DNA from: an uncultured virus (IMG/VR IMGVR_UViG_3300037358_000205)
Taxonomy: Duplodnaviria; Heunggongvirae; Uroviricota; Caudoviricetes
IMG/VR virus record: IMGVR_UViG_3300037358_000205
Direction: 5' to 3' (one strand)
Length of the DNA: 34,395 bases
The translations under genes and the position numbers were made by a program. The notes under the pieces are model-generated. The model was not told where the DNA came from. It did no database searches and saw only the letters and a list, made by a program, of their open reading frames with translations. Shown here piece after piece: positions 1,025 through 22,159 of this stretch; within the stretch, counting starts at the first letter, position 1; every line of letters begins with the position of its first letter.

Positions 1025-1053
1025 GGTGGCTTTGTGTGTGTGTGGTTTTTGCT

Positions 1054-1203
1054 TCACGCGTGAAGCAGTTCAGGTGACTCGATTGGCGGTTCGAGGGTGA
1101 TGGGCGCGTACTCCGGGGCTGAGTCCATCGCGACGAGGGCGACGGTGCAGACGGGGCACGTTTCAGTGTTGTGGTCTTCGTGGATAAAGAAGGCTGGGCA
1201 CAT
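1054..1203 (-). CDS. small hypothetical protein (49 aa, CxxC) ending in the palindrome
   Basis: Manual translation MCPAFFIHEDHNTETCPVCTVALVAMDSAPEYAPITLEPPIESPELLHA*; the TGA stop lies inside the palindrome at 1051-1066. Confidence 0.45.
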   Translation of the reverse strand: MCPAFFIHEDHNTETCPVCTVALVAMDSAPEYAPITLEPPIESPELLHA

Positions 1204-1354
1204 TGGGCTTGCTGAGGGGTTGAGGTTTAACTAAAGAGGGAGTCGGGTCAAAAGTGTCATTGTGACAATATGTCAACACGTTTGACACAATGATTTTGTC
1301 GTGTGGCTGCCGCGCTGGTTTGGGGGAGCCAGCGCGGCAGGGCCGCGCGGAAAG

Positions 1355-2008
1355 TTACTTTTTGGGCTGGTCGAGGTCCCGATTCCTGCCGCTGAGAAGT
1401 TCGGCGGCAGTCATGGTCTTGAGGATGTTGCGGGAAGTGAACTCAACGGGGGTGTTGGTTTCATAGCCGTGGATGTGAGCGCTAACCATGTTGGCTTGCT
1501 CGATGACGCCCTGCCACGTTTCGCCCTGGCGGGTGACTTGGACCCAAAAGCGTTCGCCTCCCGCCTTCCGTTCGCCTTCTCCCTTCCAGCCAACGCCAAG
1601 CTGCACGAAGTCGCCCTCGTGGATTTCCTCCAACTCGGCCGCGCCGGGGATGAAGAAGGAGTCCGGATGCTGCCGGTTTCGATCCACGGCATCCATGAGG
1701 GGCATTTGCTCGGCTGCGGTCGGGAGTTTCTCGGGATGCGGGAAGGCCCAAAACTGCGTGCCGTCGAATTGAACATCGTGCCCCACCGGGAGGCGGGCTG
1801 CGGCTTCCACGGTTTCGAAGATGGAATCAAGCGTAGCCTGGAGACGGCAGGCTTCGTCGAGGTCGAGCGTGGACCAATCCTTCTGAATGGCCGTGGCCGC
1901 GTTGTGAGCGAGGAAGGCGGGCACTTTAGTGAGAGGGTAGGGCTTGAGGCCGTAGCGAACTTCCCATGCGGCGGGATCGGGGAATTTGTAGGCGGGTGGA
2001 CGTGGCAT
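1355..2008 (-). CDS. hypothetical protein with C-terminal DUF2314-like domain
   Basis: Likely start MPRPP at 2008. The C-terminal HPDSFFIP...GDFVQL...GERFWVQV...WQGVI pattern resembles DUF2314-type domains. Confidence 0.55.
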   Translation of the reverse strand: MPRPPAYKFPDPAAWEVRYGLKPYPLTKVPAFLAHNAATAIQKDWSTLDLDEACRLQATLDSIFETVEAAARLPVGHDVQFDGTQFWAFPHPEKLPTAAEQMPLMDAVDRNRQHPDSFFIPGAAELEEIHEGDFVQLGVGWKGEGERKAGGERFWVQVTRQGETWQGVIEQANMVSAHIHGYETNTPVEFTSRNILKTMTAAELLSGRNRDLDQPKK

Positions 2009-2141
2009 AGGATGGGATGGTTTTTCGGGGTTCAGTATTTTGGGTGTTTGGCGGAAATAGCAAGGGTGAGGTAGGCGGCGGGGACTCTCTGAGCGCCCCG
2101 CCGCCCGTTCCACACACACGGAAAGTCGATGATCGACGGCG

Positions 2142-2870
2142 TTATGCCGCTTTCTGTTCGCGGAAGGCGGCTACGTCGAGGTACGCCTCGGCGTCGAGAA
2201 GGGCGGCGCGGACGTTGCCCCCGGCTCCGAAGGCGATCTTGTCGGCCATTTCAGCGGGGACGCCGAATTTCCGGACAAGGCCGCTGATTTCCTCCTGCGG
2301 AGGATTGACGATGGGGTATTGCATCCACCGGGTTTGAAACCGCTCCTGCATTTGAAGCAGGTTGGCGTTGCTGGTGCCGATGATGGCGCGGTGGGGCGTG
2401 AGGTCGTCGGCGTAGTCGAGCATGAGGATCTGTGCATCGTTGGTGCAGACATCCATTTCGTTAATGAGCTTGACGCTGTAGCCACCGAAGAGGCTGGACA
2501 TGGGGAGCGAGGCCATCCACTCGCGGACAAGCTCCACGCCGATCTGCTTGCCATTCTTCTTCTCGATCTCCGTCTCGTGCTGGGTGAGGAGCTTGGCGAG
2601 CCAGATTGCCAACTCGCTTTTGCCGACACCGGGAGGGCCGTGGAAGATGACCTTGAAGGGATTGCCCACTGCGAGGAGTTTCTTGACCTTCATGGCGAGG
2701 ATGCCGGCGACTTCGCGGGCGTTGCCGATGAAGTCCTCGGGTTCGGACGGGTGCCAGGTCGAGGGGGAGATGTGAGCGTAGGGCTGGCCGATGGGGATGA
2801 TGGTTCCCCGCGTCCAGTTGGACGAATGGTTTGGATTAGGGTTTTTGGCGGGTTTGGCGGTGCGTTTCAT
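2142..2870 (-). CDS. AAA+ ATPase, clamp-loader clade (DnaX/RFC/RarA-like)
   Basis: FIGN, Walker A GPPGVGKS, IGVELVRE, Walker B-like LINEMD, sensor-1 GTSN, RFQTRW (SRC-like), GNVRAAL. Confidence 0.8.
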   Translation of the reverse strand: MKRTAKPAKNPNPNHSSNWTRGTIIPIGQPYAHISPSTWHPSEPEDFIGNAREVAGILAMKVKKLLAVGNPFKVIFHGPPGVGKSELAIWLAKLLTQHETEIEKKNGKQIGVELVREWMASLPMSSLFGGYSVKLINEMDVCTNDAQILMLDYADDLTPHRAIIGTSNANLLQMQERFQTRWMQYPIVNPPQEEISGLVRKFGVPAEMADKIAFGAGGNVRAALLDAEAYLDVAAFREQKAA

Positions 2871-2991
2871 GTGTGTGGTGTGTGGTTACTGACGGTTGAG
2901 CCACGCGAGCGCGGCGTTGTGGGTGGGAAGCTCGATGTCCTGGGCAATCATATATCTTGCTCACAAGGCTCGGGCGGTTTGAAGTCGTGGG

Positions 2992-3882
2992 ATGAGCAAA
3001 ACGAGGCCGTTAAAATTCTCCGAATCATCACAGATCGCCGATTGGAAGAAGTGGCATGAGCAAACCTACAAATCCCGCATCTGTCGTCGCGTGGCTGCTA
3101 TTTATTCCGAGAATTTGCTGCGCTCTCATTGCTTGGCCATTGTTCCAGGATACGCCTTTATGAGCGGCGTGAACTGGCAGGAATGCATGGACGAGGCGAA
3201 GAGACGGGAAAATATTCAGGACGAAACAGACGAGAAAGTGTTAAGGCTAGCAACAAGGCTGTACCTTCACATTTTCAAAACGCGGACCATAGAGGACGGG
3301 AGCCGCGACCTACGTGCCGCCCAAAGCAATGCCGAAATCACGATGTCTAGGACTCCGATTATGAGACGATCTCTTGTCGGGATGCTTGAGGGGATGATTA
3401 TCCAAGCATGGACCGCGTACGAGGTGATGGCTGTCGATCTGATTAAAAGTCTGCTCAAACGGAGGCGATCTCTCGACACGCGCAAAACTTGGTCTCCAGC
3501 GGAAAAAGAACACTCAGGATTTGGAAGCCGAAGCAAAATCGCCAATTATTACCGATGGACATTCAGGACCGACAATGCGGCCATACTCAAAAATGTTGAT
3601 AGCCCGGCTGTCCACGCACTTGGAATTGCTCGCAATCTACTGGTTCACTCCGCTGGGTGCATCGACAAATCTTTTCAAACTCACAGACTTGGATTTTATG
3701 CTGGCATCCCAAGCTTGTCCCCATTGCTGCCAATTCCAGAACTGAATAAAATCAGGGGAAATTCGATTGGCTATCGTGTCAACTTCGATGGAGATTTTGT
3801 GCGCCTCCTGATTGACAAAGTGACGCCGTTAGGATTTGGGCTGGTAAAGTACGTGGATGAGTGGCTTACTACTCACAAATGA
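2992..3882 (+). CDS. HEPN-like domain protein (putative RNase, toxin or defence effector)
   Basis: IIQAWTAYE followed by ARNLLVH (Rx4H). Visibly lower GC than its neighbours and on the opposite strand. Confidence 0.6.
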   Translation: MSKTRPLKFSESSQIADWKKWHEQTYKSRICRRVAAIYSENLLRSHCLAIVPGYAFMSGVNWQECMDEAKRRENIQDETDEKVLRLATRLYLHIFKTRTIEDGSRDLRAAQSNAEITMSRTPIMRRSLVGMLEGMIIQAWTAYEVMAVDLIKSLLKRRRSLDTRKTWSPAEKEHSGFGSRSKIANYYRWTFRTDNAAILKNVDSPAVHALGIARNLLVHSAGCIDKSFQTHRLGFYAGIPSLSPLLPIPELNKIRGNSIGYRVNFDGDFVRLLIDKVTPLGFGLVKYVDEWLTTHK

Positions 3883-3929
3883 AGGATCAGATTGGGGGGC
3901 TGTAATACTCTCTCACGTCGATGATATTC

Positions 3930-4676
3930 TCACCCCTCAGCCTTCTTCTTAGATGCGTGCGTTTCCCTATACTCAGCTTCCCTCCGAAGTATGGTGGGAT
4001 AGACATTGATGAAATCGAATTTGGTCATTTCGATGAGGAGCATTGCGGTTTGGACGTGGGTGCCTGTCTCCTTGAACGCGGCGGGGTCGAGGCTGATCCA
4101 CTGGGAAGCCAGAGGGCGTAACGCCTTGTCGCGGTGCGGGCCTTCCATGCAGATCGCGGCGAGCTTGCCCTCCGGTTTCAGGAAGGTAAGGGCGTGGAGG
4201 ATGTGCTTGATGTCGCTCCTCATGTGGAAGGGCGGATTCATGATGATGGCGTCGAATAGGCCGGTTTCGGCGGGTTTCATCGTGAGGAAGTCGCGCTGAT
4301 AGAGGGTCTTTTCCCCGTTGCAAGAGTCGTAGTTCTCGTAGAGATGGCGGCAGAGGACGGGTTCCATTTCCACGGCGACGACCTCGGCGGGAGCGATGGG
4401 CATTTGGATCGGGTGCAGGATGGCGTCGATCAAACGGCCAAGGCCGGCGCTGGGCTCGAGCACTCGTGCGCTGGGTTTTAATCCAAGCAGGGCCGCAAGC
4501 TGGGCGGCGATTGCCACGGGTGTCTGGAAGAGTTGATAGGCGCTGACTGCAACGGGCGCGGCGCCGTTCTCGTGACGGCCCGCGAGTCGGTCGAAGCGCG
4601 GTTTCATTTCCTGCATGGCGAAGCCAGCGGCATCGTTTTCCATGCGGAGTTGGTGCAGGCGGTGGAATGCGTTCAT
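3930..4676 (-). CDS. class I SAM-dependent DNA methyltransferase (N6-adenine, NPPF type)
   Basis: QLFQTP, motif I VLEPSAGLG, AVEME, DFL, motif IV IIMNPPF, HILHALTFLKPEG. Start MNAFH at 4676 overlaps the upstream stop. Confidence 0.9.
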   Translation of the reverse strand: MNAFHRLHQLRMENDAAGFAMQEMKPRFDRLAGRHENGAAPVAVSAYQLFQTPVAIAAQLAALLGLKPSARVLEPSAGLGRLIDAILHPIQMPIAPAEVVAVEMEPVLCRHLYENYDSCNGEKTLYQRDFLTMKPAETGLFDAIIMNPPFHMRSDIKHILHALTFLKPEGKLAAICMEGPHRDKALRPLASQWISLDPAAFKETGTHVQTAMLLIEMTKFDFINVYPTILRREAEYRETHASKKKAEG

Positions 4677-4828
4677 TTTGGCTCCCTTCCCACCGGCAGC
4701 ACTTTGACGGCGTGGCATCCCGGCGTTTCGCGGGCGATGCGTTCGGCGGTTTTGAGAGTGAGCGGCCCTTCGCCGTTTTCCTCCCAAATGCCGCCGCGAT
4801 TTTCGATGATCCAGACGATGTATTTCAT
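4673..4828 (-). CDS. small hypothetical protein
   Basis: MKYIVWII...; overlaps the upstream stop and the downstream start (translational coupling). Confidence 0.5.
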   Translation of the reverse strand: MKYIVWIIENRGGIWEENGEGPLTLKTAERIARETPGCHAVKVLPVGREPK

Positions 4829-5016
4829 TATTTGGCGTTCTGTTGTTCGATCCAGTATTTCAAGCCTTCCTTGGCGGCGGCTTGATTGGCTCGCTTGTGT
4901 TGGATTGTCTTGCCGTCCCCGTCGCATTCCTCGTTGCCGTCGATGGTGCCGACGAAGTACCAGGAGATATTTGTGCAGGAGACGTAACCGGAGAAACGGG
5001 ATTTTCTTTTCTTCAT
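4828..5016 (-). CDS. small hypothetical protein
   Basis: MKKRKSRF...; TAATG coupling to the next ORF. Confidence 0.45.
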   Translation of the reverse strand: MKKRKSRFSGYVSCTNISWYFVGTIDGNEECDGDGKTIQHKRANQAAAKEGLKYWIEQQNAK

Positions 5017-5123
5017 AAAGAGTTGGTTGGTAAGCAGCAGGCCCCGATGCCAAGGCCAGAGGTATCGCGCCACTCCTACCTAAAGGGCAGGCGCGTCTGT
5101 GCGGGCATCGGGGCCAAATTGCT

Positions 5124-6722
5124 TCACGCGTGAATCAGTTCAGTCTGAACGGGCAGGGCTTCCCACACTTCGGCGGGGAAGGGCTTCTGCGGCTTGTCGG
5201 TGAGGACGATGACGGCCATCGCCATGTAGCTGGAGCCATAGGTCACGCGGACCTGGGCGACGGCGGGGCCTCGCGCCTTGCGGCGTGCCTCGCCTTCGGA
5301 GGAATACATATTGGATTCGCGCTCGCTGAGTTCGCCGTTGTGGTAGAGGTAGCGCGTCTCGGCTTTCGCGTAGGAGCCTTGAGAGTTGGCGGAATAGGTG
5401 GCCTGCTTGATGCGGCAAACCTCCGTCGCCGTGAACGGTTGCGGGTGTTTCTTCCGCAAGAGTTCATCCTGTACCCGGTTATTGAGCATGGTCTGGAGCC
5501 GCTCGGCATCCTCGTCGGTGGGATTGACGAGGGGGATGGTGGCCTTCTTGGGCGTGGCGTCCTTTTTCTCCTTCACGAGCGCGGCGAGCGCGGCCTTGTC
5601 CGCCTCAGTCGGCGGGCGATAGGCGTTCTGCGGGAGCCGCTCGGTCTTGTACTGCATGAGGGCGTAATCGGTGCCGGGGACGTTCTCGACTTGGTAAGTC
5701 CAGCCGGAAACCTTGGGGACGCGGATATGCACGGAGACAACCCGGCCGGTTTTCACGGACTTGTTGACCTTGTGAATCTGCTTCTCGCCGATGAAGCCTC
5801 CCACTTCGATGTCGAGAGAGGCGGCGCGGCCTCCCTGTGCCTCGATCATCTGATTCTCGTAGGCGAGGCGAAGCTCCATGTGGAGCGTCCACTCATTGTC
5901 GGCCTGCGGCTCGGAGTGATCGGAGAAGAAGAGGTCACATGCCTGCTTGCCGGTGATGGTGTGCTTCTCGGGGCGCGGCTTGATGTCCTCCTCGCTCTTG
6001 AGGTTGACGCCGGAGAGGAGGCTGTAGAGCGAGGATTCCCCATCGCGGCTGAACGCCGTGGGGCCAAGCGGATGCGGGTATTCGGCCCATTGGTTGGTCG
6101 AGCCGGTGAAGTCGAGGGCAATCTCGGTCTGCTTCACGGGGTCTTCGATGGCGCGAATTTTCTCCCATGCCCGGAAAATCCGAAGGCGCTTCTCGATCTC
6201 GGCGCGCTCCTTGCGAAGCTCGGCCTCGATGGTCTTGATGCGGCCCATGCGGACGCCGGGGCTGGAGACGTGGAGGGCGTGGCTGATGACGCCAGCGGTG
6301 CGCCGTTGCCAGTATTCGGCTTTGCCCCATGCGTCGGTGGCGCGGGTGCCGATGCGGTCGTGGCGGGATGCCGCGCGGTTGGCGCGGGCCTGGCTCTGGA
6401 AGCCGTGGACGTGGGGGCCGGCGTCGAAGCGGTCGGCGTGGCCGGCGGCCTCGTCGGTGCGCTTGTCGCGGTACTCGCCGAAACGCTCGGCGCGATCCGC
6501 GGCGCGGTCCTCCGGTCCCATGTCCTCGTCTTCGATGATGTCCGCGTACTTGAGGCAGGTATCGCGGCGGCTGACGGTCCAGGTGGCGACGAAGTCGCAA
6601 TCCTGTTTGGGTGTGGATGTCCAGCCCTGCGCTTTGAGCAGGAGGTATTCATCCCGTGGAACGCGTCCGACATAGAGACGGAGCTTGTTATCTTCGGGGC
6701 TATAGGTGGCGGTGTCTTTCAT
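5124..6722 (-). CDS. DUF3560-like domain protein
   Basis: The N-terminus ATYSPEDNKLRLY...W+P+Q...IEDED...RAERF...AEYW..R...RI..IEAELRK matches my recollection of DUF3560 proteins of plasmid leading regions. The stop lies inside the palindrome (IHA*). Confidence 0.8.
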   Translation of the reverse strand: MKDTATYSPEDNKLRLYVGRVPRDEYLLLKAQGWTSTPKQDCDFVATWTVSRRDTCLKYADIIEDEDMGPEDRAADRAERFGEYRDKRTDEAAGHADRFDAGPHVHGFQSQARANRAASRHDRIGTRATDAWGKAEYWQRRTAGVISHALHVSSPGVRMGRIKTIEAELRKERAEIEKRLRIFRAWEKIRAIEDPVKQTEIALDFTGSTNQWAEYPHPLGPTAFSRDGESSLYSLLSGVNLKSEEDIKPRPEKHTITGKQACDLFFSDHSEPQADNEWTLHMELRLAYENQMIEAQGGRAASLDIEVGGFIGEKQIHKVNKSVKTGRVVSVHIRVPKVSGWTYQVENVPGTDYALMQYKTERLPQNAYRPPTEADKAALAALVKEKKDATPKKATIPLVNPTDEDAERLQTMLNNRVQDELLRKKHPQPFTATEVCRIKQATYSANSQGSYAKAETRYLYHNGELSERESNMYSSEGEARRKARGPAVAQVRVTYGSSYMAMAVIVLTDKPQKPFPAEVWEALPVQTELIHA

Positions 6723-6788
6723 GTGCGTGTGCTGTTGCTGGGTTGGTTGATAGGTTGATTCACGCGTGAAGCAGAAAGTTACTTTCAG

Positions 6789-7403
6789 TCATGACCATTT
6801 GTATTTGGCCCAATCCTTGAACTCGCGTTTGGCGTCCACGAGTTGAATGGGGTATTTGCTGGCGACCTGTTTCAGAAGGATGCCTTCGAAAAAGACATTG
6901 AGGCCGGTAAGTCCAAGCTGGCGGTTCACGAATTGCGCGTGGGTGTAAAGCTCCCATGCCTCCCGCAAGGGATGGCTGGCGACGGCGCGGACGGCGTTCT
7001 CACGCCCGAAATCCTTGTTGGCGAGACAGGCAATGTCCCGCTCCATGATTTCGCGGCGTTCGGTGTAAGTGGCGTCGGGGATCATCACGTCGAGAACGAT
7101 GAGGGAGCCGCGCATGTAACCGTGACGGCGCTCCAAGCCTTCGCAATCCATGTGACGGGGAAACCGCTTTGGCAGGGCATGGAGTAAGTCGAGGGCCTCG
7201 GAAAACTCGGAGGAGATTGAGAGGACTTCGCCGTGCCGGTTGTAGAGGATCTTCTCGTGGCGGTCGGCTTCGACGCGGAAGCCGTTGAGTTTCAATTCCG
7301 CCCTGCGGTCGCCGTAAATGTCGGGATCGAGAAACAGGGGCTTGGTGATTGCGATGTCGAGCGGCCCGCCGTGGATGGGGCGGGCTGGATGGGTGAGGTA
7401 CAT
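6789..7403 (-). CDS. ATP-dependent DNA ligase-like adenylation domain (no OB-fold)
   Basis: Motif I ELKLNGFR, NRHG, motif III MDCEG, IIIa LDVM, IV EGILLK and V WAKYK, followed almost immediately by the stop. Start MYLTHP at 7403. Confidence 0.75.
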   Translation of the reverse strand: MYLTHPARPIHGGPLDIAITKPLFLDPDIYGDRRAELKLNGFRVEADRHEKILYNRHGEVLSISSEFSEALDLLHALPKRFPRHMDCEGLERRHGYMRGSLIVLDVMIPDATYTERREIMERDIACLANKDFGRENAVRAVASHPLREAWELYTHAQFVNRQLGLTGLNVFFEGILLKQVASKYPIQLVDAKREFKDWAKYKWS

Positions 7404-7558
7404 AGACGGTGTGCGGCTTGTTGGGCTTCGGTGAAGGTGGCTTTTGCCATGATTGCGCGGTGAAATTCCTGCCAGTATTTTCCACGGCCATAGAGGAGTG
7501 GCGTCTTGCGCCACTCCTCTTCGGACATTTCCCACGGATGCAGGGTGTGGACTTCCAT
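7292..7558 (-). CDS. small hypothetical protein (overlaps the ligase start)
   Basis: MEVHTLHPWEM... is coupled by TAATG to the upstream gene; its 3' part overlaps the ligase ORF by about 110 nt. Confidence 0.35.
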   Translation of the reverse strand: MEVHTLHPWEMSEEEWRKTPLLYGRGKYWQEFHRAIMAKATFTEAQQAAHRLCTSPIQPAPSTAGRSTSQSPSPCFSIPTFTATAGRN

Positions 7559-8292
7559 TAGTGCTTGCGGAAGCTGGCCTGAATGGGGATGACGCGGTTG
7601 AGGGCGAGGTTGGTAGCCAGGTCGAACCGCTGCCACCGGGTCGCCTTGAAGTGCGGGGTGGGGGCGATGATCGACTTGCGGGCGAGGCAGTTGAGGCAAC
7701 CATGCTCCTGAAAGAGCGCGACAAGGCCCGCCGAAAGTGCGGGGCGCACGCTATCGGGAACGTCAGCCATTTTGATGGTGAGGCTGGTGGCATCGCGGAA
7801 GTTCTCGGTGAAGAGAGGCACGTCGCCATTGAGGAGGGTGAGGAGTTCCCCGGCTGCCGTCTTTGGGATTTCCTTGTACTTGCCGCCCGAATCGCCGCAA
7901 AGGGTGATGAGGCTCTCGGAGACGACGCCGGCGGCGAGGATGCCGCTGGGGACTTCGGCCAAGCCGATGTTCTGCTTGATGTACTGATCGGTGACGACAG
8001 GCGCGAGGAGGCCGGAGAGGACTTCCATGCTGCCCTTGAGAGCGGCGGCTTCTATCTTCTGCCGGTTCAGCTCGTCGATCTGCTTGCGCTGGGGGTCGGT
8101 GAGGATGGCGCGAGGGTAGGATTTGCCCCCGGTTTTCTTCGCGGCGGATTCCCCGATCGCGGCGAGCGGGTCATCGTTGCCGAATGGGTTGACGGTGGGT
8201 GCAGGGCCGTCTTTTGGAACGACCGTGAACGTGGGGCCGGGAGCGACGGGTTGAAGGTCGGCGGCGGGTTTCTTGAGTGCGGCTTTAGCCAT
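7558..8292 (-). CDS. hypothetical protein
   Basis: 244-aa ORF with a CA-rich leader and codon usage like its neighbours. Confidence 0.75.
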   Translation of the reverse strand: MAKAALKKPAADLQPVAPGPTFTVVPKDGPAPTVNPFGNDDPLAAIGESAAKKTGGKSYPRAILTDPQRKQIDELNRQKIEAAALKGSMEVLSGLLAPVVTDQYIKQNIGLAEVPSGILAAGVVSESLITLCGDSGGKYKEIPKTAAGELLTLLNGDVPLFTENFRDATSLTIKMADVPDSVRPALSAGLVALFQEHGCLNCLARKSIIAPTPHFKATRWQRFDLATNLALNRVIPIQASFRKH

Positions 8293-8687
8293 TGTGTGTA
8301 TTTGTTTTGTTGGTTGTTGGTTTGGTTACTGCGGAGAATCTTCCCGCTCCACGACGATCCATTTTTTATCCTACTGGGACTCAGGGTGGGCGTCTGTCAG
8401 ACCATGCCAGGGCCAATCGACGCGGAGCGGGGGAAAGAAGACTGCCCGCCCGGCAGAGGTTCGCGGATACCGTGTGCTCCCGTCTTCGCCTTTTCCCGTT
8501 GGTTCTTCAAGGTGAAGAAAAGGAAGGCGGGGCCGTTGGTCGTTTGAACTTGCAGGGGCGGGTTGCCTCTATCTCTCAGGGTATTTCATGGGAGCGATAT
8601 TCAACCGATGGCGCCTCGGTGTCGTCGCTAACAGCCATTATGAGAGAGCAGGCAAAGTTGCTTCACGCGTGAAGCGTAAGCGGAAAG

Positions 8688-8981
8688 TTACTTTTTGATG
8701 ATACCGTATCGGCCGGGATTGACCCGGACGGTGGCCCATGCGTCGAGCATGGCGCGGTTCCAGAAGATGCGGGCGCGTTCCATGGATGTGGTGCCGGCGC
8801 ATTGCCAGCGGTCGAGCCCTCCGCACTCGGCGAGTTGCTCTTGGAAGTAGTAACTGACCACGGCGCGAAATTTCGCATTGGCGCGGCGCAAGCCGGGGGG
8901 CGGCGGGTCGCCTCCGGTCCACGCGCAACGCTGCGAGCCGGGCGTGAGGAAGGCGAGGTTTGGAATAGGTGTTCTGTTCAT
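8688..8981 (-). CDS. hypothetical protein
   Basis: 97 aa; ATGA overlap with the upstream gene; the TAA stop lies inside AAAGTAACTTT. Confidence 0.55.
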   Translation of the reverse strand: MNRTPIPNLAFLTPGSQRCAWTGGDPPPPGLRRANAKFRAVVSYYFQEQLAECGGLDRWQCAGTTSMERARIFWNRAMLDAWATVRVNPGRYGIIKK

Positions 8982-9397
8982 ACGTGGGGATTGAGCTTGT
9001 TGAAGATGGTTTCCCGCAAACCACGGGCATCAATGATTGGCTCGGTGACGTTGTTCATGCCGGAGCCATAGCGGCCTTCCTGCCACTCCTGGTGATCGGG
9101 ACGCATGGCGACCAGGCGGATGTAGTTCGCCCTATCGTTGGGATCGCCGCAATCGACGAGGGAGATGGTGCCGAAGCCGTCATAGGATTGCGGGGCATTG
9201 GTCTGCCGGATGACGAAGACATCGGGATCGGCGTCGTCGATAATGATGCAGAGACGCATGGATTTGTTACTGGATACGCCGCCGCAAAGGAGGGAGCGGG
9301 CTTCCTTGAGATGGTCGATGACCATTCCGGTATCATCGACGCCTTCGCCCTGTTCGAGCGCGGTGATGGAGCTATTGAGTAGTTGGAGTAATTTCAT
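8978..9397 (-). CDS. hypothetical protein
   Basis: 139 aa, tightly packed in the operon. Confidence 0.65.
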   Translation of the reverse strand: MKLLQLLNSSITALEQGEGVDDTGMVIDHLKEARSLLCGGVSSNKSMRLCIIIDDADPDVFVIRQTNAPQSYDGFGTISLVDCGDPNDRANYIRLVAMRPDHQEWQEGRYGSGMNNVTEPIIDARGLRETIFNKLNPHV

Positions 9398-9406
9398 GGT
9401 TGAGTT

Positions 9407-10045
9407 TCATGTGTGGATGCCGAATTCGTTGCCGTGCGGGATGATGCCGCCATTGAAGCCGAAGCCACCGGGAAAGCGGCCGTCGAAGTAAAACTCCGTG
9501 CCGCAACCGCGGAATTTGGCGAGGGGGAGCATCCGGCGCATTTCGGCAAGGAGCCGTGTCCATTGCTCGATTTCGAGGATGCGATGGAAGTGTGCGAGGG
9601 TTTTTGCCATGCCGTAGGTTTCGCCACGATGGGGCGAGGCGTTCGGATGCCGGATGATCTGCGTGATGCTGAGAGCCGGGATTTCCTCGGGTGCGTTCTT
9701 GAACTTGCGGGCATCGAGGGTGGCGCTGATCTGCTTCGCGTGGAGTTTCGCGAGGACGCGAAAGAGCTTTGCGGTATCGAGGATATAGACGTGGCAGGGG
9801 GCGTGGTACTGGCCGCATTGGACGCGCCGCCAGTCGGCATTGTCGGTGCCCATGCACTTCGAGAGCACGATGCGCCAGGACTGGATGCAAACGACCGTGG
9901 AGAGGTCGAAGCAAGCGCGCTGGTAGCCGATGGGTGCGGTAAGTTCGTCCTTGGTGAGATAGAGGCTTGCGCCGTCCGAGAACTTGAGACAGACGCAATC
10001 CTGACTGTGACTGACTTCGATGCTGAGGATTGGCGGATGGAACAT
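9407..10045 (-). CDS. hypothetical protein
   Basis: Start MFHPP at 10045 follows the palindrome and a CA-rich leader; ends in GFGFNGGIIPHGNEFGIHT. Confidence 0.7.
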   Translation of the reverse strand: MFHPPILSIEVSHSQDCVCLKFSDGASLYLTKDELTAPIGYQRACFDLSTVVCIQSWRIVLSKCMGTDNADWRRVQCGQYHAPCHVYILDTAKLFRVLAKLHAKQISATLDARKFKNAPEEIPALSITQIIRHPNASPHRGETYGMAKTLAHFHRILEIEQWTRLLAEMRRMLPLAKFRGCGTEFYFDGRFPGGFGFNGGIIPHGNEFGIHT

Positions 10046-10106
10046 GGTGTGTGTGGTGTGTTGGTTTTGCTTCACGCGTGAAGCGGTTTTTCTGCGTTGA
10101 TGGGGT

Positions 10107-10505
10107 TCATGGTGTTATGAGTTGGACGGCGATGATTCCCGATGAACGGGAAACCATCATGTTATCGGTGCAAGCGTAGATGGGGCAATCGGCCCAGGCG
10201 GGATGCGAGACGCGGAAGGCTTTGGCGACCTCGACGGCCTTCTGGAAGGTGGGCGCGGGGTCGGGCGTCGGGGTATTTCCATGCTCCCTGATTTCCTGCC
10301 CCTTGCGGTTGCGAGTGGGGAGGGTGAGGGAGAAGCGATTGGCGTTGTAACGCTGGGAGCCTTTCACTTCCCACGGGACGGTCTCGGTGGGTTTGATGAA
10401 GGGGAAGATACTGCTTCCCCCGTGGATAAAGATACCGAAGTGCGCAGGATCGTGGCGGCAATCGTTGCGCTTGTTTTTGAATCCGAAGCGATGTTCGTAG
10501 GGCAT
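10107..10505 (-). CDS. hypothetical protein
   Basis: 132 aa, bounded by the palindromes at 10542 and 10069; CA-rich leader. Confidence 0.65.
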   Translation of the reverse strand: MPYEHRFGFKNKRNDCRHDPAHFGIFIHGGSSIFPFIKPTETVPWEVKGSQRYNANRFSLTLPTRNRKGQEIREHGNTPTPDPAPTFQKAVEVAKAFRVSHPAWADCPIYACTDNMMVSRSSGIIAVQLITP

Positions 10506-10544
10506 TGGTGTGTGTGTGGGTTGGTTGAAAAGTTACTTTTTGCT

Positions 10545-10784
10545 TCACGCGTGAAGCGTGATGGGATTGACGCCGGATAGTTTGGTTTCGCGGGCGAGCA
10601 TTTTTGTCACGAACTCGTCGTATTCGGACTGAGTAAGTTCTTCCCTGCCGGGAAAGCCGTAGGCAAACCTGGAGCCATTCGGCTCGGCGCGGAAGAAAAC
10701 GGCGCGACCGCTGGAAAGGTCGATAGGGGCGTTTGCGTCTAATGCCTTATTGAAGGCTTCGACGGCTTTGGCGTGGTTGGTCAT
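10545..10784 (-). CDS. small hypothetical protein
   Basis: 79 aa; the ATG lies just after the TAAGGCA-N6-CGTATA motif and the stop is in the palindrome (LHA*). Confidence 0.65.
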   Translation of the reverse strand: MTNHAKAVEAFNKALDANAPIDLSSGRAVFFRAEPNGSRFAYGFPGREELTQSEYDEFVTKMLARETKLSGVNPITLHA

Positions 10785-10818
10785 ATCTCTATACGGCGGG
10801 CTGCCTTATGGTTCCGGG

Positions 10819-11439
10819 TTAGTAATTCGCCGCCTCCGCGAATTGGTCGTGGACGCGGCATTCCTTGAACTCCTGCCACTCGGGGCGGCGGATTCGCCGG
10901 CCTTGAAAGTGGGAGCGGGATTTATCCTCGCCTTGCTCCATGTAGCTTTCCGTGGCGGCGAGCTGGTCCAGGGGCGAGAAGTGAGCGCCGGATCGGCGGA
11001 TGCTCCCGTCGCAATCGCGGCCTCCATTGGACCACTCATTGAGGACGATGAGGGGCGCGGTATCGGAAAAACGATCATCGCGCTGATAGGTGTAAAGGTT
11101 GGACTCGAAGGAATACCCCTCGTCATCCGGCGCGGAAAACCCGAAGGCGAGGGATTGGCAGAAGCGCAGGGTGAGCTTCACCCAACTATTGTGATAGAAC
11201 GTCCAGAAACGGGCGTTTGGCGGCTCGTTGCTGATGCGGGTGAAGCCGACAGAATCGACGACATACCGCTCGTTGTAATGGAGGCCAAGGATGTTGAGTG
11301 CGCTGTGGAAATCGGAAGCGATACGCTGGCAAGCGGCTTCCTGTGGATTGTGGCGGGCGAGCTTTTCCAACTCGTCGGCGGTTTGCTGGCGCAACGGGAA
11401 CGGTGCGCCGCGAACGATCTCTTTGTGTATTTCGATCAT
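10819..11439 (-). CDS. hypothetical protein
   Basis: 206 aa, CA-rich leader, RDCDG motif. Confidence 0.7.
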   Translation of the reverse strand: MIEIHKEIVRGAPFPLRQQTADELEKLARHNPQEAACQRIASDFHSALNILGLHYNERYVVDSVGFTRISNEPPNARFWTFYHNSWVKLTLRFCQSLAFGFSAPDDEGYSFESNLYTYQRDDRFSDTAPLIVLNEWSNGGRDCDGSIRRSGAHFSPLDQLAATESYMEQGEDKSRSHFQGRRIRRPEWQEFKECRVHDQFAEAANY

Positions 11440-11619
11440 TGGTGTGTGTGGTGTGGTGTTTGGTTTCTGGCGTTACCGGGCGTCCCCGGTGTTGCCGGAA
11501 GAACCTCCGGCGAGTGGCTTCAACAGTTTGGTTTTTATCGACGCATCCCTGTAAACTGTTCAGGTCCCATACTCATAAGTAGGGTGCGCCGTTTCATGCT
11601 TCACGCGTGAAGCGGAAAG

Positions 11620-11688
11620 TGGCGGCGGTCGGGGATTTCAACCCCACCGGGTTTATTGCCCGGTTTCAGCCGTGTTGCGGCTACCGCC
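11620..11688 (-). ncRNA. tRNA-like RNA (non-canonical cloverleaf, GCCA end)
   Basis: GGCGGT|AGCCG-CAACA-CGGCT|GAA|ACCGGG-CAATAAA-CCCGG|TGGGG-TTGAAAT-CCCCG|ACCGCC|GCCA. Confidence 0.55.
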
Positions 11689-11693
11689 TTTTT

Positions 11694-12611
11694 TTACCGG
11701 CCCGGCATCGTGACGGAATTGAGCGCGGCAAGTGCCTTGGCGAGCGCGGGATTTTTGGGCGCTGCCTTGGGCTTCGGGAAAGGAATGACTTTGGCCGCAA
11801 GCTGCTTCTCGATCATGGAGCCGACATTCGCGCCGATTTCTTCGCGGGGCTTTTCATGCCAGCCTTGCTTGGCGAGATTGAGCGCCCATGCCCCGGCATG
11901 AGGGCGGATGTCCGCCACGGTTTGCGAGTGCAGCCCACCTTCGTCATAGGCGTTGCGGTGGATTCCAATGCTGTCCTGGGTGAATTCATACGGGAGCCAT
12001 GCGTCAAGCTCTATGACGGCGAAGAGAATCTCGGGATCGCGCACGAGCTTATCCCCCGGCAGGAAGTAGGTATGCGAGACGGACACGGTTGGAACGCGGG
12101 CGGGGCAGCGGTGCAGCGGCAGGACTTCGATGGAAAGCGACAGGTAGGATTTGTGCTCGTACTTGCGGGAAAAGAGGGCGCGGCCTTTGAGCGCCTCCTC
12201 GAAGGCGACGGCATCCCCACGGCTTGCGATGACGCGCCGGAGATTCTTCGGGAAGGCGCGAGTGAGAAGGGGATCGAGCGTGGAGGTAATGCGGGTGGTT
12301 TCACCCTTGCCCCCTGTCTGCTGGATATGCCAGAAGGCATCGAACGCGGCCCGCCAGTTCTTAGCGCCGGGATGGGCGAGGGCGTATTGCAGGAAGTTAT
12401 CCCTGATTTCTTCGGCCCGCGCGGGTTCGGCATCTGCCGGGTTATTGGTGAGCATGGCAAACATGCCCTGCGGGAAGGCCGCAATGATGCCGGGCAAGGT
12501 GGAAACCTTGGGGACGCGCACGGCGGGCGCTTTCTTGCTCCGGCGCGTTTTGGGCGCGGGAGCTTCGACGGTGGCGATTGCTTCGCCGGTAAGGACATTG
12601 AGACGAGCCAT
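11694..12611 (-). CDS. DUF6908-like domain protein
   Basis: The C-terminal half YLSLSIE...VSVSHTY..GD..RDPEILF...WLPYEFTQDSIG resembles DUF6908/DUF1249. Confidence 0.6.
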   Translation of the reverse strand: MARLNVLTGEAIATVEAPAPKTRRSKKAPAVRVPKVSTLPGIIAAFPQGMFAMLTNNPADAEPARAEEIRDNFLQYALAHPGAKNWRAAFDAFWHIQQTGGKGETTRITSTLDPLLTRAFPKNLRRVIASRGDAVAFEEALKGRALFSRKYEHKSYLSLSIEVLPLHRCPARVPTVSVSHTYFLPGDKLVRDPEILFAVIELDAWLPYEFTQDSIGIHRNAYDEGGLHSQTVADIRPHAGAWALNLAKQGWHEKPREEIGANVGSMIEKQLAAKVIPFPKPKAAPKNPALAKALAALNSVTMPGR

Positions 12612-12656
12612 AAAAAGTTACTTTTCGGTTTGCGGTTGCTGCTTCACGCGTGAAGC

Positions 12657-12692
12657 AAAAAGGGCGCGGCGGGATGGACCGTCGCGCCCTTT
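12657..12692 (-). terminator. GC-rich hairpin followed by a U tract (probable intrinsic terminator, possibly bidirectional)
   Basis: AAAGGGCGCGGCGG-GATGGA-CCGTCGCGCCCTTT; on the minus strand it ends in TTTTT and abuts the palindrome at 12641. Confidence 0.55.
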
Positions 12693-12718
12693 GGGTGGGT
12701 TTGTGGCGATGCGGATTT

Positions 12719-13129
12719 CTAGGCCGCTTTCTGGAGGGTGAGGCTGATGCGCTCGGCCTGGCCGGCGAAGTACCGCTTGAGATAGACGCGGCCCACGATG
12801 GGGGCCTGGCCTTCGATCTCGACCTCATCGAACACGCGGCAACCCTTCGTGTCCTTGAGGAAGGCGAAGGTGCGGCAGTTCGCGGAGGGGGGCTGGCTGC
12901 CGGTCTTGTCCACGTGGACGCCGATGCTGGGTGCGGACCCGGCAAAGAAGCGTTTCACGTAGAGCGTGCCCATGCTCGGGGGAGTGCCTTCGACTTCGGC
13001 CTCCTCGTAGCGGACGGCGCCGGGAGTTTCCTTGCCGCGCGTCAAGAGGATGACGTTGGCGAGGGCGGTTGCGACGATGGCGGTGGGCGCGATGCGCTTC
13101 GCCGTGGATTTGCTGGATGCTTTCGGCAT
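12719..13129 (-). CDS. hypothetical protein with an internal two-fold repeat
   Basis: KETPGAVRYEEAEVEG..SMGTLYVKRFFAG versus KDTKGCRVFDEVEIEG..IVGRVYLKRYFAG; start MPKAS at 13129. Confidence 0.7.
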   Translation of the reverse strand: MPKASSKSTAKRIAPTAIVATALANVILLTRGKETPGAVRYEEAEVEGTPPSMGTLYVKRFFAGSAPSIGVHVDKTGSQPPSANCRTFAFLKDTKGCRVFDEVEIEGQAPIVGRVYLKRYFAGQAERISLTLQKAA

Positions 13130-13201
13130 TTGATTCCTTTCGGTTTTGTGTGGTTTTTGCTTCACGCGTGAAGCGGCGGCTGTGGTGTTTGCAGCGAAAA
13201 T

Positions 13202-13276
13202 TGGGGCGCGGCTGGGACTCGAACCCAGACGATTACGGGCGAAAGCGCGCAATCGCAGCACGTCCTGCTCCGCACC
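13202..13276 (-). ncRNA. tRNA-like RNA (canonical T-arm, CCA end, no anticodon loop)
   Basis: GGTGCGG|AGCA-GGACG-TGCT|GCGATTGCG-CGCTTTCGCC-CGTAATCGT|CTGGG-TTCGAGT-CCCAG|CCGCGCC|CCA. Confidence 0.65.
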
Positions 13277-13511
13277 TGAAAATATGCAGGTTCGAAGTGC
13301 TTCACGCGTGAAGCGGTAAGCACTTCAAATCTGCACACTTGGTAGTGTGCATCCGTTGTCTCGCTCGCAACGGCGCGGACCTTGTTTGCTCGTCTATGGT
13401 CAAAGACGTGGGCGCTTTGTTGCGCGGTTGGTAGTTACCGTTTAAGTCTCATAACTCCCTTTCTTGGTTTGGTTGAGGGTTAGTCTCTTCCCTCCTATAC
13501 GCTGGACTGCC

Positions 13512-13769
13512 TTACGGTTTTAAGGTGGAAACCAGATACAGGAGGGCCACGACTCCCATCCAGAGGGGGATGGCTAGTATGACAAAAACATGCTCGGGGT
13601 GATTTTGGCCGTAACGCTTCACGCGTGAAGCAATGCCGCGGCCGTACCGGAAGATTCGACGGCGATTTCTCCGGTAATCGCCCCGGCGCATCGTGCGATT
13701 CGAGGGGAGATGATGCAGCCATTCGGCTACGTCTCGGGCGTCATTGCGCCGGATTCCGCAGCCTCGCAT
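13512..13769 (-). CDS. small putative membrane protein
   Basis: 85 aa with a C-terminal hydrophobic segment; reads through the palindrome at 13616. Confidence 0.4.
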   Translation of the reverse strand: MRGCGIRRNDARDVAEWLHHLPSNRTMRRGDYRRNRRRIFRYGRGIASRVKRYGQNHPEHVFVILAIPLWMGVVALLYLVSTLKP

Positions 13770-14135
13770 TTAGTAGCTTGCGCGGTGATGGCTACGCTTG
13801 CCGCTGCTGCTGCCGCTGCCGGCGTTGCTGGCGTTGCTGGCGTGATGGCTGCGACCACCACTGCTGCCGTGGCTCCATGCCGCGTGGCTGGTGGTGCCGG
13901 TGGCCAGGATGAAGGCGAGCGCGATGCACGCGGCGGCGAGGAAGCGCGTTCCGAACCCCGGATGCAAACCGAGGATGACGAACATGGGGCGCTTGCGTGC
14001 GGACAGCTTGAGCGCCCTGCGCTGCTCATCGGGCGCGATGCAGCGCGTTTCGGTGTGCAGGGTGAAGTGGCGCGGCGATTTGCGGCCTGTGGCTGTGAGC
14101 ATTGGCACGGGCGTTGTGACTTTGGCGACGATCAT
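13770..14135 (-). CDS. hypothetical protein with a hydrophobic segment and a Ser/His/Gly-rich tail
   Basis: Start MIVAK at 14135 follows the palindrome; FLAAACIALAFILA is followed by SHGSSGGRSHH. Confidence 0.5.
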   Translation of the reverse strand: MIVAKVTTPVPMLTATGRKSPRHFTLHTETRCIAPDEQRRALKLSARKRPMFVILGLHPGFGTRFLAAACIALAFILATGTTSHAAWSHGSSGGRSHHASNASNAGSGSSSGKRSHHRASY

Positions 14136-14800
14136 TTGCGTGTGTCCTTTCAGGGATGTTGTGTTGTGGTTTACTGCTTCACGCGTGAAGCAATTCGCCT
14201 CGCGCGTTGCAACCCGCTCGCGTCTTGCGTGTGGGTCGCGCTTCACGCGTGAAGCACTCGCAGCGTGTCGCACAGCGTTTCCGCTGTGCTTCACGCGTGA
14301 AGCACTCCGCACGATGAAATCCAAAAAGTTGCTTTTTTTGGCGCACCCCCTTCCTCCGGTAATGGAGGCAAACCATGATCCGCCGCTCGATTCTTTCCCT
14401 CGCCCTTTATACGCTGTGCTGGGTTATGGCTCCCACTGAGAGCACCCTCCTTGGGTTTTTCGAAGCGCCCTTTAAGGGGGGTTTTTTCGGGAGAAAAAAA
14501 GCCGGAAATTTCCCGCCGAAAAAAATTCGGCTCCTATGGGCGCGACCTATACGGGCGCGAAAAAAAATAAAAAATAGAACGGCAAACCGGGCGGATTGCT
14601 TGCCCGGTTTGCCTCTCTTGCTTATCGGCTGATGCGAAGTGCAAGCAATGTGATTGCGGATAGACCGCGACGCATTGCCCGCCTTGCAAGTGCCTTCCTT
14701 GCTTTCGCGCTCATGCTGTCCCCCTTTCATTGTTACCGAATAGACCGCTTGCTAAGTTCGCCCCCTCGCTCCCATAGGAGCAAAGGGGCGTACCAAGCAA

Positions 14801-14822
14801 GGCGGGGGGAATGCCCCCCGCC
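14801..14822 (-). terminator. hairpin downstream of the 14838 gene
   Basis: GGCGGGGGG-AATG-CCCCCCGCC, 15 nt past the stop; weak U tract. Confidence 0.4.
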
Positions 14823-14837
14823 GCTTGTCCTAATCGA

Positions 14838-15575
14838 CTAGGCCGCAACCTTTGCGGCCTTGCCCGGTTTGCCCGCCTTGAGCTTCACAATCTGCCCCAA
14901 CCGCTTGAAAGCAAGGGCAAGCGCCTTGCTTTGCTCCTCGCTGAAATCCGCCTCCCCGATACGGACACCCGCCGCTTGCAAGGTGGCAAGGGCAATTTCC
15001 GCCGGAGACAATTCCTCCCCTTCCTCGCCCTCGCCTTCCCCGCCTTCCCCGCCTTCACCGTCCCCCGCCTCTTGCTTGGCCGGTTTCAATTGGTCGCGAA
15101 GCGTTTCGAGCCTATCCTGCCCGCCCTTTGGCTTGGTACGAATGACAGCCGCCATGCACTCGAAATGCGCAGCCGCTTCAACGTCCCCGAACGGTTTCCC
15201 GTTGACCTCCCGCCCCGCCTCTTGCGCTTCGGGAATCAGGTTAATGATTGCGCTGGCAACGGCCAGCCATCGGGCAGGGATCAAATCGAGTTGAGTCTCC
15301 GAATAGAACCCCGAACCCTCCCCGACACGCGCGCAGCAATTCGCCACGCTCCACGCTTGCGCGGGAATGTCCTTGCGGTCTGCTTTGATGGATTCGGAAA
15401 CGTATTTCTGGACACTCTTCGTGTCCCTTGGCGCTTTGCTGGCAAGCGCCGAAATGAGTTTCCCGAGCCGATGGCAAAGGCCGCCGCTATCGGCCAGCAA
15501 TTGACGCCCCCGCTTGCTCAAATCCGCCACGCTCATTTCCTTGAACGTAGCGAGATTTTCGATTAGTGCTTTCAT
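14838..15575 (-). CDS. hypothetical protein
   Basis: Start MKALIEN at 15575 after a CA-rich leader with AAGGA; contains an acidic GEGGEG linker. Confidence 0.75.
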   Translation of the reverse strand: MKALIENLATFKEMSVADLSKRGRQLLADSGGLCHRLGKLISALASKAPRDTKSVQKYVSESIKADRKDIPAQAWSVANCCARVGEGSGFYSETQLDLIPARWLAVASAIINLIPEAQEAGREVNGKPFGDVEAAAHFECMAAVIRTKPKGGQDRLETLRDQLKPAKQEAGDGEGGEGGEGEGEEGEELSPAEIALATLQAAGVRIGEADFSEEQSKALALAFKRLGQIVKLKAGKPGKAAKVAA

Positions 15576-15833
15576 ACTTAGTTTTCCTTTGTGTGTGTGT
15601 GTTTTGTTTTGTGTAGCTTGGCGGTTTGCCTTGCTTACATTCTTTATACGCCCGATTGCCTTACGGTATTTTTTCCGCCCGGTTTGCTTCACCCGTGAAG
15701 CACTTTCACCCGGTTTGATTCCTTCCGCTTTGCTTCACCCGTGAAGCACTTTCCCGCCCGGTTTGCTACCGTCTAACCGATTCCCTTTCTCCCCTGTCTC
15801 TTATACGCTGGATTGCCTTACCGAATAACAATG

Positions 15834-15866
15834 AAAAAGGCCGCTAGGGTTGAACCTAGCGGCCTT
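15834..15866 (-). terminator. intrinsic terminator
   Basis: AAGGCCGCTAGG-6nt-CCTAGCGGCCTT ending in a U tract on the minus strand, 17 nt after the stop of the 15884 gene. Confidence 0.7.
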
Positions 15867-15883
15867 CCGATTGCTTCTCTTGC

Positions 15884-17329: not shown

Positions 17330-17812
17330 TTGACTTTGTGTGTGTTTGTTTGCTTATGCCGCTTGCGCTTGCCAGTCACTTGCCGACAACGCGCAGGAAG
17401 CACTTTGCCCCTTTATATTCGCCCTTATGTCAAGAGCCGAAAGAGTGGGAAAATGCGCCCGCCCTTTTTAGGATTGGCCCGCTATCGCTTCACGCGTGAA
17501 GCAAGGCCGCAAAATGCGTTTGCCCCTGTATTCATGCGGGAATCACCCCGCGCGAAAGGGTAACTTCCTCTAGGTAGTTTCCTCGCAACCACCCGCCAAG
17601 GGGGATAGGTTACAAGGGGCGGGAAGTGCCACTTCAAACCACCCCAGGCTGTCGAGATCGGCGCGCCTCGCGGGAGCTATTGGCTATCGGCCCCGGATCA
17701 TCGAAAAGTAACTTCCTCGCCCGTGGAGCCGGGTAGGGTCGCCGGGCATGGGGGAGGCCCGCTGGGGCCACACAGCGACCGTGAGGAAGGCGCGAGGCGG
17801 GGGCAGGGGGAT

Positions 17813-22071: not shown

Positions 22072-22159
22072 GATGTGCGTGGGCAAACGTTCTATGGCGA
22101 ACACCCTTGGCGGGCAAGAAGGATTTGCAATTTTGTCTCTGTGACGTAAAAAGCCATCC

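Follow-up and report, generated by a model that had tools for sequence, protein, structure and literature searches.

The leading regions carried by conjugative elements have come to be regarded as rapidly evolving reservoirs of anti-defence genes and, to our knowledge, gene shuffling and donor silencing in them are known for only a few enterobacterial plasmids. In integrons, the attC sites of the cassettes are imperfect inverted repeats of about 57-141 bp with extrahelical bases, which differ between cassettes. Regarding repeated regulatory sites, work on the CUP/ArdK system is reportedly that of Delver and Belogurov (1997), which a later paper cites. CUP elements are described, in an excerpt of PMC6289460, as a repeated short sequence upstream of several IncN leading-region genes that is bound by the plasmid repressor ArdK. 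The PeSLs of T4-type phages consist of a sigma-70 promoter and a terminator stem-loop conserved over about 100 bp (PMC2839356, in part), and neighbouring repeats recombine to give indels and mini-circles with a chimeric motif (excerpts of PMC2839356 and PMC4122927). Finally, Cluster A mycobacteriophages (L5, Bxb1) carry up to about 30 copies of a 13-bp stoperator, mostly not promoter-associated as far as the excerpted account goes; these sites are asymmetric, oriented with transcription and bound by a monomeric repressor, and related phages have their own consensus (PMC6550527). Here we analyzed a stretch of 34,395 nt (34.4 kb; IMG/VR record IMGVR_UViG_3300037358_000205), called the window below and on which all positions are counted, for a family of 16-bp palindromes and for two altered copies that flank a gene with a DUF3560 domain.

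Searching for GCTTCACGCGTGAAGC with up to 2 and up to 3 mismatches, with the chance level taken from shuffled sequence, we found 17 copies of the palindrome in the window, all within 1051..17502; the rest (17 kb) has none. Thirteen of the 17 are perfect and four carry a single mismatch; with 2 mismatches allowed, chance alone would give 0.03 sites, and with 3 allowed, 0.30. Degenerate copies were not found, since raising the tolerance to 3 mismatches yielded no extra site in the window. Two of the mismatched copies, at 5121 and 6757, are the only ones altered at position 2/15, and they flank the DUF3560 gene; the other two, at 15686 and 15732, are altered in the centre. The family is a striking and sharply conserved feature of a mobile-element lineage widespread in peat metagenomes. 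We tentatively read the palindromes as operator-like control sites and the hybrid pair around the DUF3560 gene as the scar of an exchange, a joint reading that seems plausible to us at somewhat short of an even chance. Overall, we class the array as a family of regulatory repeats in a block that resembles a leading region and shows mosaicism associated with the repeats.

An array of near-identical palindromes, mostly between genes

The palindromes start at 1051, 5121, 6757, 8660, 10069, 10542, 11598, 12641, 13159, 13299, 13616, 14176, 14240, 14288, 15686, 15732 and 17487. The sequence flanking them is not conserved, and the common stretch is the 16 bp alone. All genes of the array share one orientation (minus strand), and the intervals between sites hold from 0 to 6 genes. 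A minus-strand ATG lies 21-40 nt downstream of eight of the palindromes, mostly across a CA-rich leader, and three of the 17 provide the stop codon of the preceding gene, always in the frame CTT/ATT-CAC-GCG-TGA. At two places (15868-15835 and upstream of 12641), a terminator-like hairpin with a T run stands just ahead of palindromes, so that the palindrome there starts a new transcription unit. Terminator-like sites are not enriched in the array as a whole (31 found versus 26.6 expected), and a role of the palindrome itself as an intrinsic terminator was ruled out, as A-rich rather than T-rich sequence follows it on the minus strand.

Tandem copies occur at two places, 14176/14240/14288 and 15686/15732. 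The latter two (15686-15747) lie 46 bp apart, have a G to C change at position 8 in common and similar flanks, and look like a local tandem duplication of a unit of about 46 bp. No family match to a RAYT/MITE-type transposase was found in the window, and the palindromes are confined to one of its blocks. The family did not turn up as described in our literature searches, which were aimed at the comparison systems and at DUF3560 and none at the palindrome itself.

Like the CUP elements of IncN plasmids (pKM101/R46), the palindrome is a repeated short site before leading-region or establishment genes of one mobile element. Unlike them, it is a perfect palindrome of 16 bp that recurs 17 times; the window yielded no homologue of ArdK, the host is no enterobacterium and the element is integrative, carrying an integrase. 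With the stoperators the array shares the many near-identical short sites in one element, whereas the site of the window is a perfect palindrome. Their varying consensus is paralleled in L008, a Victivallales genome bin with a distant DUF3560 locus, where a different motif (core AACCGTTAC, usually AAAACCGTTACGG) is present in 16 copies within 6.9 kb, all in gene orientation. Several of these precede a start codon by about 15-30 nt, that of DUF3560 among them; some are clustered and a few lie inside the gene. Judged from these sequences, L008 has the same architecture with a different word, and related elements would carry their own version of the motif. Within L008 2756-3064, the AACCGTTAC-core motif occurs four times in frame in an N-terminal extension of DUF3560, three of the copies 33-45 bp apart. 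A search of 401 genomes of the phylum of L008 gave 2 single palindrome matches, as many as a control pattern did; this is a weak test of a genome-wide palindrome, given that the window's own phylum is not established.

Regarding integron cassettes, the likeness lies in the one-directional gene array with inverted repeats in between, often overlapping the 3' end of an open reading frame (ORF), and in the hybrids formed by site halves of neighbouring cassettes. In contrast to integrons, the window has no IntI-type integrase, its sites are identical 16-bp palindromes with a variable number of genes (0-6) per interval, and no presence or absence of a cassette bounded by two sites was found.

Reciprocal hybrid sites around the DUF3560 gene

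On the + strand, the left hybrid (5121..5136) reads GCTTCACGCGTGAATC and the right hybrid (6757..6772) reads GATTCACGCGTGAAGC, letter by letter as an earlier note on this DNA had given them. The two are exact reverse complements of each other, and their altered arms face inward. That note had also placed one complete gene and its leader between them, and this is what we found: a single ORF of 532 aa on the minus strand (5124..6722) with a match to the DUF3560 domain (Pfam PF12083; E 3.2e-7, 30.9 bits versus a cut-off of 27.2), and a CA-rich leader (6723..6756, minus strand) that spans the 34 nt from the right palindrome to the start codon and measures 17 nt in the related contig L082. The stop codon of the gene (TGA, 5124-5126), which the note had missed, sits within the left palindrome, which thereby encodes the last four codons (IHA among them) and the stop of a protein that ends in ...ELIHA*. 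The left variant base opens the Ile codon of ELIHA and turns the Leu codon CTT into the Ile codon ATT.

According to the earlier note, a crossover in the core would regenerate one consensus site and release a circle of about 1.64 kb with an all-variant palindrome. These products would indeed result, from any crossover between palindrome positions 3 and 14 and not from the core alone, and the predicted circle would regenerate the stop codon. One could argue for a dedicated site-specific cassette system, in which a DUF3560 circle with an all-variant palindrome was integrated into a consensus site and left an attL/attR-like pair. The extreme conservation of all 16 bp, with no degenerate copies, and the single orientation shared by all array genes would agree with it. 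Known tyrosine-recombinase core sites and attC sites have directionality, though, and a fully symmetric site with a symmetric core gives none; the varying gene content of the intervals does not suit it either. Besides, no recombinase lies inside the array, and the only one found in the window, a generic tyrosine integrase (33157..34395, minus strand) that runs off the window end about 16 kb from the nearest palindrome, reaches 24.6 bits versus the integron-integrase cut-off of 265 (TIGR02249) and 19 versus 435 (PRK15417). On balance, and with the evidence from relatives given below, we consider such a system unlikely.

As a chance model of the layout, two half-sites bearing an identical change were distributed randomly over the 34 half-sites of the array. 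The probability that they flank one interval face to face is P = 16/561 = 0.029; for an interval with a single gene, it is P = 5/561 = 0.009. The layout of the hybrid pair is moderately, not overwhelmingly, unlikely by chance. These low probabilities fit an exchange inside the palindromes as well as a cassette system, and together with the same base change appearing in mirror image at both sites they speak against a simpler explanation, namely that two independent point changes at the least constrained position (2/15) were fixed by drift or hitch-hiking and face each other by coincidence. This explanation draws support from the other variants of the family, at positions 1, 2+15 and 8, so that outer and central positions vary, and from the nature of the left variant, a conservative Leu-to-Ile change in a hypervariable C-terminal tail. 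We regard independent changes as possible, on the doubtful side.

The change also affects folding. The local hairpin of the consensus has an energy of −5.4 kcal/mol, which drops to −0.8 and −0.3 kcal/mol in the hybrids. These values would be expected if a G-C pair had been replaced by a compensatory U-A pair in a 16-bp long-range helix, in RNA or in transferred single-stranded DNA, with the gene looped out and the local hairpins disabled. In the antiparallel duplex, position 15 of the upstream site would then have position 2 of the downstream one as its pairing partner, and a leading-region context implies a single-stranded phase (see the plasmid pVE155 pair below; PMC11541004, in part). Complementarity stops, however, at 16 nt, and every consensus site complements every other, with no evident partner logic beyond the hybrid pair. 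The helix would also leave the same sequence pattern as recombination, and the sequence by itself does not tell the two apart. We rate it as rather improbable.

Inheritance of the sites among relatives

A pattern scan of metagenome contigs gave at least 121 stretches and one of viral contigs gave 4, and the total of 125 was examined. The four viral-contig matches are single and unrelated. Of the metagenome stretches listed, blastn links 13 to the window and tblastx another 2; they are without exception short contigs, with 76-97% identity. These 15 related loci hold 20 palindromes, of which 14 are perfect, though their flanks are only 76-95% identical. Over the window and the 15 loci together, variation is seen at palindrome positions 1, 2, 8 and 15 only, and the half-site cores TTCAC/GTGAA are invariant. 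Such cores would fit recognition of the site by a protein that binds as a symmetric dimer; a hairpin in which loop and end tolerate change would look similar.

The earlier note had asked whether the inner variant arms travel with DUF3560 in relatives, and they do. L082 (95% identity) has the same hybrid site upstream of DUF3560, L126 (86% identity) has the same one at the DUF3560 end, and 12 of the 15 listed proteins at least 90% identical to the DUF3560 protein end in IHA, some of which may be the window's own. Both hybrids are thus old and stable, being kept at 86-95% identity, which suits independent changes; that both are inherited together is also in line with a long-range helix. In the L126/P0125 type, the variant A forms a stop codon in another reading frame, and this second use of the same A adds to the case for independent changes.

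Among these proteins (P0001, P0121-P0134), the last 10-25 residues ahead of IHA differ strongly by indels despite at least 90% overall identity, with tails such as ALPVQTEL, SYTPPVEAKAEV, SYTPPTQAEL and ALPAEAAEGDNGGRRAGESQPDL (window codons 5127-5170). Given the tail indels and the changing downstream neighbours described below, both sides of the palindrome are hypervariable and the palindrome itself is fixed. The DUF3560 protein has more than 1540 homologues. Three of the 118 distant homologues listed (P0030, P0052 and P0103, 50-55% identical) have LHA or VHA at their C-terminus, as would be encoded by the consensus palindrome and by a G-variant palindrome, respectively; from these endings, the palindrome family may also be present in far more distant elements.

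Two relatives depart from the reciprocal pattern. In L047, the same hybrid (G-to-T) stands before an unrelated gene and its reciprocal partner is nowhere in the 1737-bp contig. Independent substitution, which the earlier note had named as the case against a cassette, is thus found, though at another gene than DUF3560. This lone hybrid favours independent changes and counts against both the long-range helix and the cassette system. In L015, the site at the place of the window 10542 site reads GGTTCACGCGTGAACC, with both arms changed symmetrically, and the next downstream site on the same contig is consensus. With a consensus site next to it, this symmetric double change cannot be explained as a crossover-made hybrid, which is a further point against cassettes. 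It points to pressure for symmetry within a site, and for a long-range helix it would illustrate that pairing symmetry is maintained elsewhere in the family.

Regarding the distant DUF3560 loci (35-58% protein identity), all eight that reach past the gene continue directly into the same methyltransferase gene, an S-adenosylmethionine (SAM)-dependent one. In four of them (L001, L002, L003 and L008), the methyltransferase begins within the stop codon of DUF3560 or 2 nt past it. The palindrome is absent from all nine distant loci. As the methyltransferase adjoins DUF3560 in these eight loci and in the E. coli plasmid pVE155, DUF3560 is one partner in a module of two genes that is old. The two are no longer adjacent in the lineage of the window, where the left palindrome, a 76-nt hairpin and two small ORFs lie between them. 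For a dedicated cassette system this evidence cuts both ways: the palindromes occupy junctions that are tight gene overlaps in distant relatives, but the pairing of DUF3560 with the methyltransferase is ancient, and over the long term the gene is no free single-gene unit.

Neighbour changes at and away from the palindromes

We compared Logan contigs of the runs X2, X3, X4 and X7 with window 1-20000 at 85% likeness. In a contig of run X4, 2884 is joined to 5120 via a 19-nt CA-rich stretch, so that the gene of an AAA ATPase comes directly after the palindrome. The homology between L126 and the window comes to an end at the left palindrome, no more than 1-2 nt from its outer edge. The neighbour thus breaks exactly at this edge in two independent variants. 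Besides, the gene after the 10069 site in L015 and L104 differs from that in the window. With the inner arms kept and the outside neighbours differing, the inner arms stay with DUF3560 while the DNA beyond the outer arm varies, as a cassette system would have it. DUF3560 does change neighbours at the palindrome edge, but gain or loss of a whole unit enclosed by two sites was not observed.

Among the 15 joints (of 46) and 12 rows (of 19) listed, none links 5121-5136 to 6757-6772 as an empty site or a circle joint would, which tells against a cassette; contigs drop rare forms, so this negative is no evidence of absence. The all-variant palindrome, also needed by a cassette, was in no element-like context among the matches listed (125 stretches). 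It is present in nine listed stretches from eight contexts (L034, L038, L070, L090, L091, L101, L106, L119 and L120), which we rejected as donors, as they have no element-like flank and no match to window proteins.

The attL/attR-like cassette footprint proposed in the earlier note is thus borne out as to the reciprocal pattern, its inheritance and the breaks at the palindrome edge, and falls short as to a circle, an empty site, an all-variant lineage and the age of the gene pair. That note had called the hybrid pair the strongest internal support for a cassette model; it is weaker than that, since the substitution occurs independently in L047 and the DUF3560-methyltransferase pair is ancient.

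The closest recombination logic is that of the PeSLs: in both cases regulatory repeats flank variable genes, and the recombination invoked for the hybrid pair is the same. In contrast to PeSLs, the window sites share 16 bp only, no sigma-70-like promoter is associated with them and no circle was among the joints listed. Indels at the motif are those of L126, the X4 joint 2884->5120 and L015/L104 after 10069; off the motif lie those of L082, L039 and the joint 4829->5036.

Proposed control sites that may double as exchange points

By analogy with CUP/ArdK and the stoperators, we infer a control function for the palindrome, as an operator-like site of the element. The 16-bp palindromes would punctuate a series of establishment genes, all read in one direction, that resembles the leading region of a plasmid and belongs to an integrative mobile element of peat bacteria. 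A putative dimeric DNA-binding protein encoded by the element would read the palindrome and keep the genes of the block under common control. As the same exact 16 bp stand at most gene junctions, the palindrome would double as a shared exchange point between related elements. The hybrid pair would then be an old scar of two crossovers, or of an excision and a re-insertion, inside palindromes, and the exchange partner a relative with A/T at position 2/15 of its sites. For this, general or short-homology recombination between the shared regulatory repeats would suffice, and a dedicated cassette integrase would not be required. By analogy with the recombining repeats described above, exchange would explain both the reciprocal pattern and the breaks of homology at palindrome edges.

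Several observations weigh against control sites with exchange. Candidates for the binding protein in the window are limited to helix-turn-helix matches below Pfam cut-offs, the array shows no excess of sigma-70-like promoters (3 versus 5.9 expected), and no donor lineage with A/T-type palindromes was among the matches listed. A length of 16 bp is very short for homologous recombination, compared with the PeSL conservation of about 100 bp (PMC2839356, in part). Three rearrangements lie away from the palindromes: the insertion in L082, whose extra gene has no palindrome before it (also a difficulty for cassettes), the absence of 22218-31897 from L039, and the joint 4829->5036 in three runs. A perfect palindrome is also compatible with an RNA or single-stranded DNA hairpin, and the symmetric double change of L015, which keeps the hairpin at −5.4 kcal/mol, speaks for pairing.

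A bolder version makes the palindrome a minimal dual-purpose site, at once an operator and the crossover point of an undescribed cassette exchange free of IntI and attC, with the hybrid pair as its attL/attR scar. Single genes such as DUF3560 would have been moved by it between leading regions, in peat integrative elements of Verrucomicrobiota-like hosts. We hold this version, including the movement of single genes, to be improbable. In any case, an element common in peat metagenomes with one exact palindrome at most gene junctions is a very regular solution. If the palindrome is both operator and exchange point, the idea of the regulatory repeat as a recombination module extends beyond T4 phages and IncN plasmids, and would hold, at a site of far smaller size, for bacteria of a distant group. 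Should the hybrid pair be due to chance, the finding reduces to a tidy, ordinary operator family.

A leading-region-like gene block

Between about 22 kb and base 1, the real genes are read from the minus strand. The block contains a primase-helicase-like gene (1222 aa, 18199..21867, minus strand), many small unmatched genes, the gene of a DUF6908 protein, DUF3560, the SAM-dependent methyltransferase, a clamp-loader-like AAA ATPase and an N6 DNA methyltransferase. The primase-helicase-like gene lies directly upstream of the array and belongs to the backbone, being 85% identical in L039. PHROGs and NCBIfam added only the methyltransferase, clamp-loader-like ATPase, primase and integrase labels.

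By tblastn against plasmids, DUF3560 homologues were found in at least 5000 of them, 3835 of which are predicted to be conjugative. The leading region of the E. coli IncFIA plasmid pVE155 holds the same pair of DUF3560 and SAM methyltransferase, flanked by a DNA methylase and an antirestriction gene, and by ssb, a ParB-like gene, psiB, psiA and hok. Genes of leading regions are typically encoded by the strand that is transferred, and methyltransferase and anti-defence genes abound among them, as described in part of PMC11541004. The one-directional block of the window, with its two orphan methyltransferases and many small unknowns, fits this picture. We detected no oriT, relaxase, type IV secretion or transfer genes in the 34.4-kb window, but as it ends inside the array, such genes may lie beyond it.

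The 9.7-kb block at 22218-31897 encodes a 1120-aa protein, three GT92/GT2-like glycosyltransferases and a sulfotransferase. L039 joins 22218 to 31897 with about 130 bp between; from its absence there, this block appears to be cargo, inserted between the candidate regulator gene and the backbone. The candidate element regulator (31909..32376, minus strand) has a sub-threshold XRE-type helix-turn-helix match (E 0.02-0.1), and its product as the binder of the palindrome is a guess only. A second helix-turn-helix candidate lies at 21868..22161 (E 0.03, below the Pfam cut-off).

The stretch 4300-7600 is present in many peat, moss, soil and permafrost metagenomes according to a public-run search, with at least half of its sampled words in 18 runs besides the likely source run, each with its own study code. 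A DUF3560 homologue with 52% identity comes from Cerasicoccus fimbriatus, which we take to be a Verrucomicrobiota species. From this homologue and the L008 bin, the host probably belongs to Verrucomicrobiota or a related phylum.

Features adjoining the DUF3560 gene and minor observations

The composition of the DUF3560 gene is not odd: its GC content at third codon positions (0.83) is within the 0.67-0.88 of its neighbours, and its codon-position GC pattern matches theirs. No solved structure resembling the protein was found at E <= 1. Its conserved downstream partner, the methyltransferase (248 aa, starting MNAFHRL), is encoded at 3930..4676 on the minus strand. Two small minus-strand ORFs precede it, one of 51 aa (4673..4828), whose stop codon overlaps the methyltransferase start codon, and one of 62 aa (4828..5016) between DUF3560 and the methyltransferase gene, which is missing from the contig variants of the three runs with the joint 4829->5036. 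The 76-nt hairpin (5040..5115, minus strand; arms 5115-5104 / 5051-5040, about −50 kcal/mol as RNA) begins 5 nt past the left palindrome and has no T run behind it. Given the leading-region context, it could be a single-strand structure element, similar to a single-stranded DNA promoter or a priming site.

Further downstream, 3336-4002 is thinly covered in X3, X4 and X7, and an X7 contig joins 2667->4032 across it. The segment 2668-4031 includes a 296-aa ORF on the + strand without family match and appears to be specific to the window's strain, a hint only.

A second motif, AAAAGTAACTTT, is present in 12 copies across the whole window, cargo included, and contains an 11-bp palindrome with an odd centre base (AAAGT-A-ACTTT). 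The minus-strand copies are at 1352, 6776, 8685, 10530, 12615, 22479 and 25731, and the plus-strand ones at 17706, 19447, 27258, 28410 and 31899; they are mostly in gene orientation and often at stop codons or just before ATGs. One copy, AAAGTAACTTT (6775..6787, minus strand), lies directly upstream of the right palindrome. In L082, an extra insertion of about 320 bp is found between the upstream gene and this AAAGTAACTTT motif, which marks its right edge; L082 320-640 holds an extra small gene of about 60 aa, cysteine-rich and zinc-ribbon-like. As AAAAGTAACTTT also occurs four times in an unrelated 11-kb metagenome contig, L076 (308, 1273, 6664 and 9007), it may be a host-level signal, promoter-like or terminator-like, from outside the element.

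The window contains no tRNA genes, and Rfam at gathering scores gave no match in it. At 13205-13262 (minus strand), in the gene-free stretch between the 13299 and 13159 palindromes, there is a tRNA-like fragment with an acceptor-like stem and a T arm with GGTTCGAGTCC. In Rfam, its similarity to a tRNA-like RNA is weak (E 0.073), and no tRNA is predicted by ARAGORN; the fragment could be the remnant of an attachment site.

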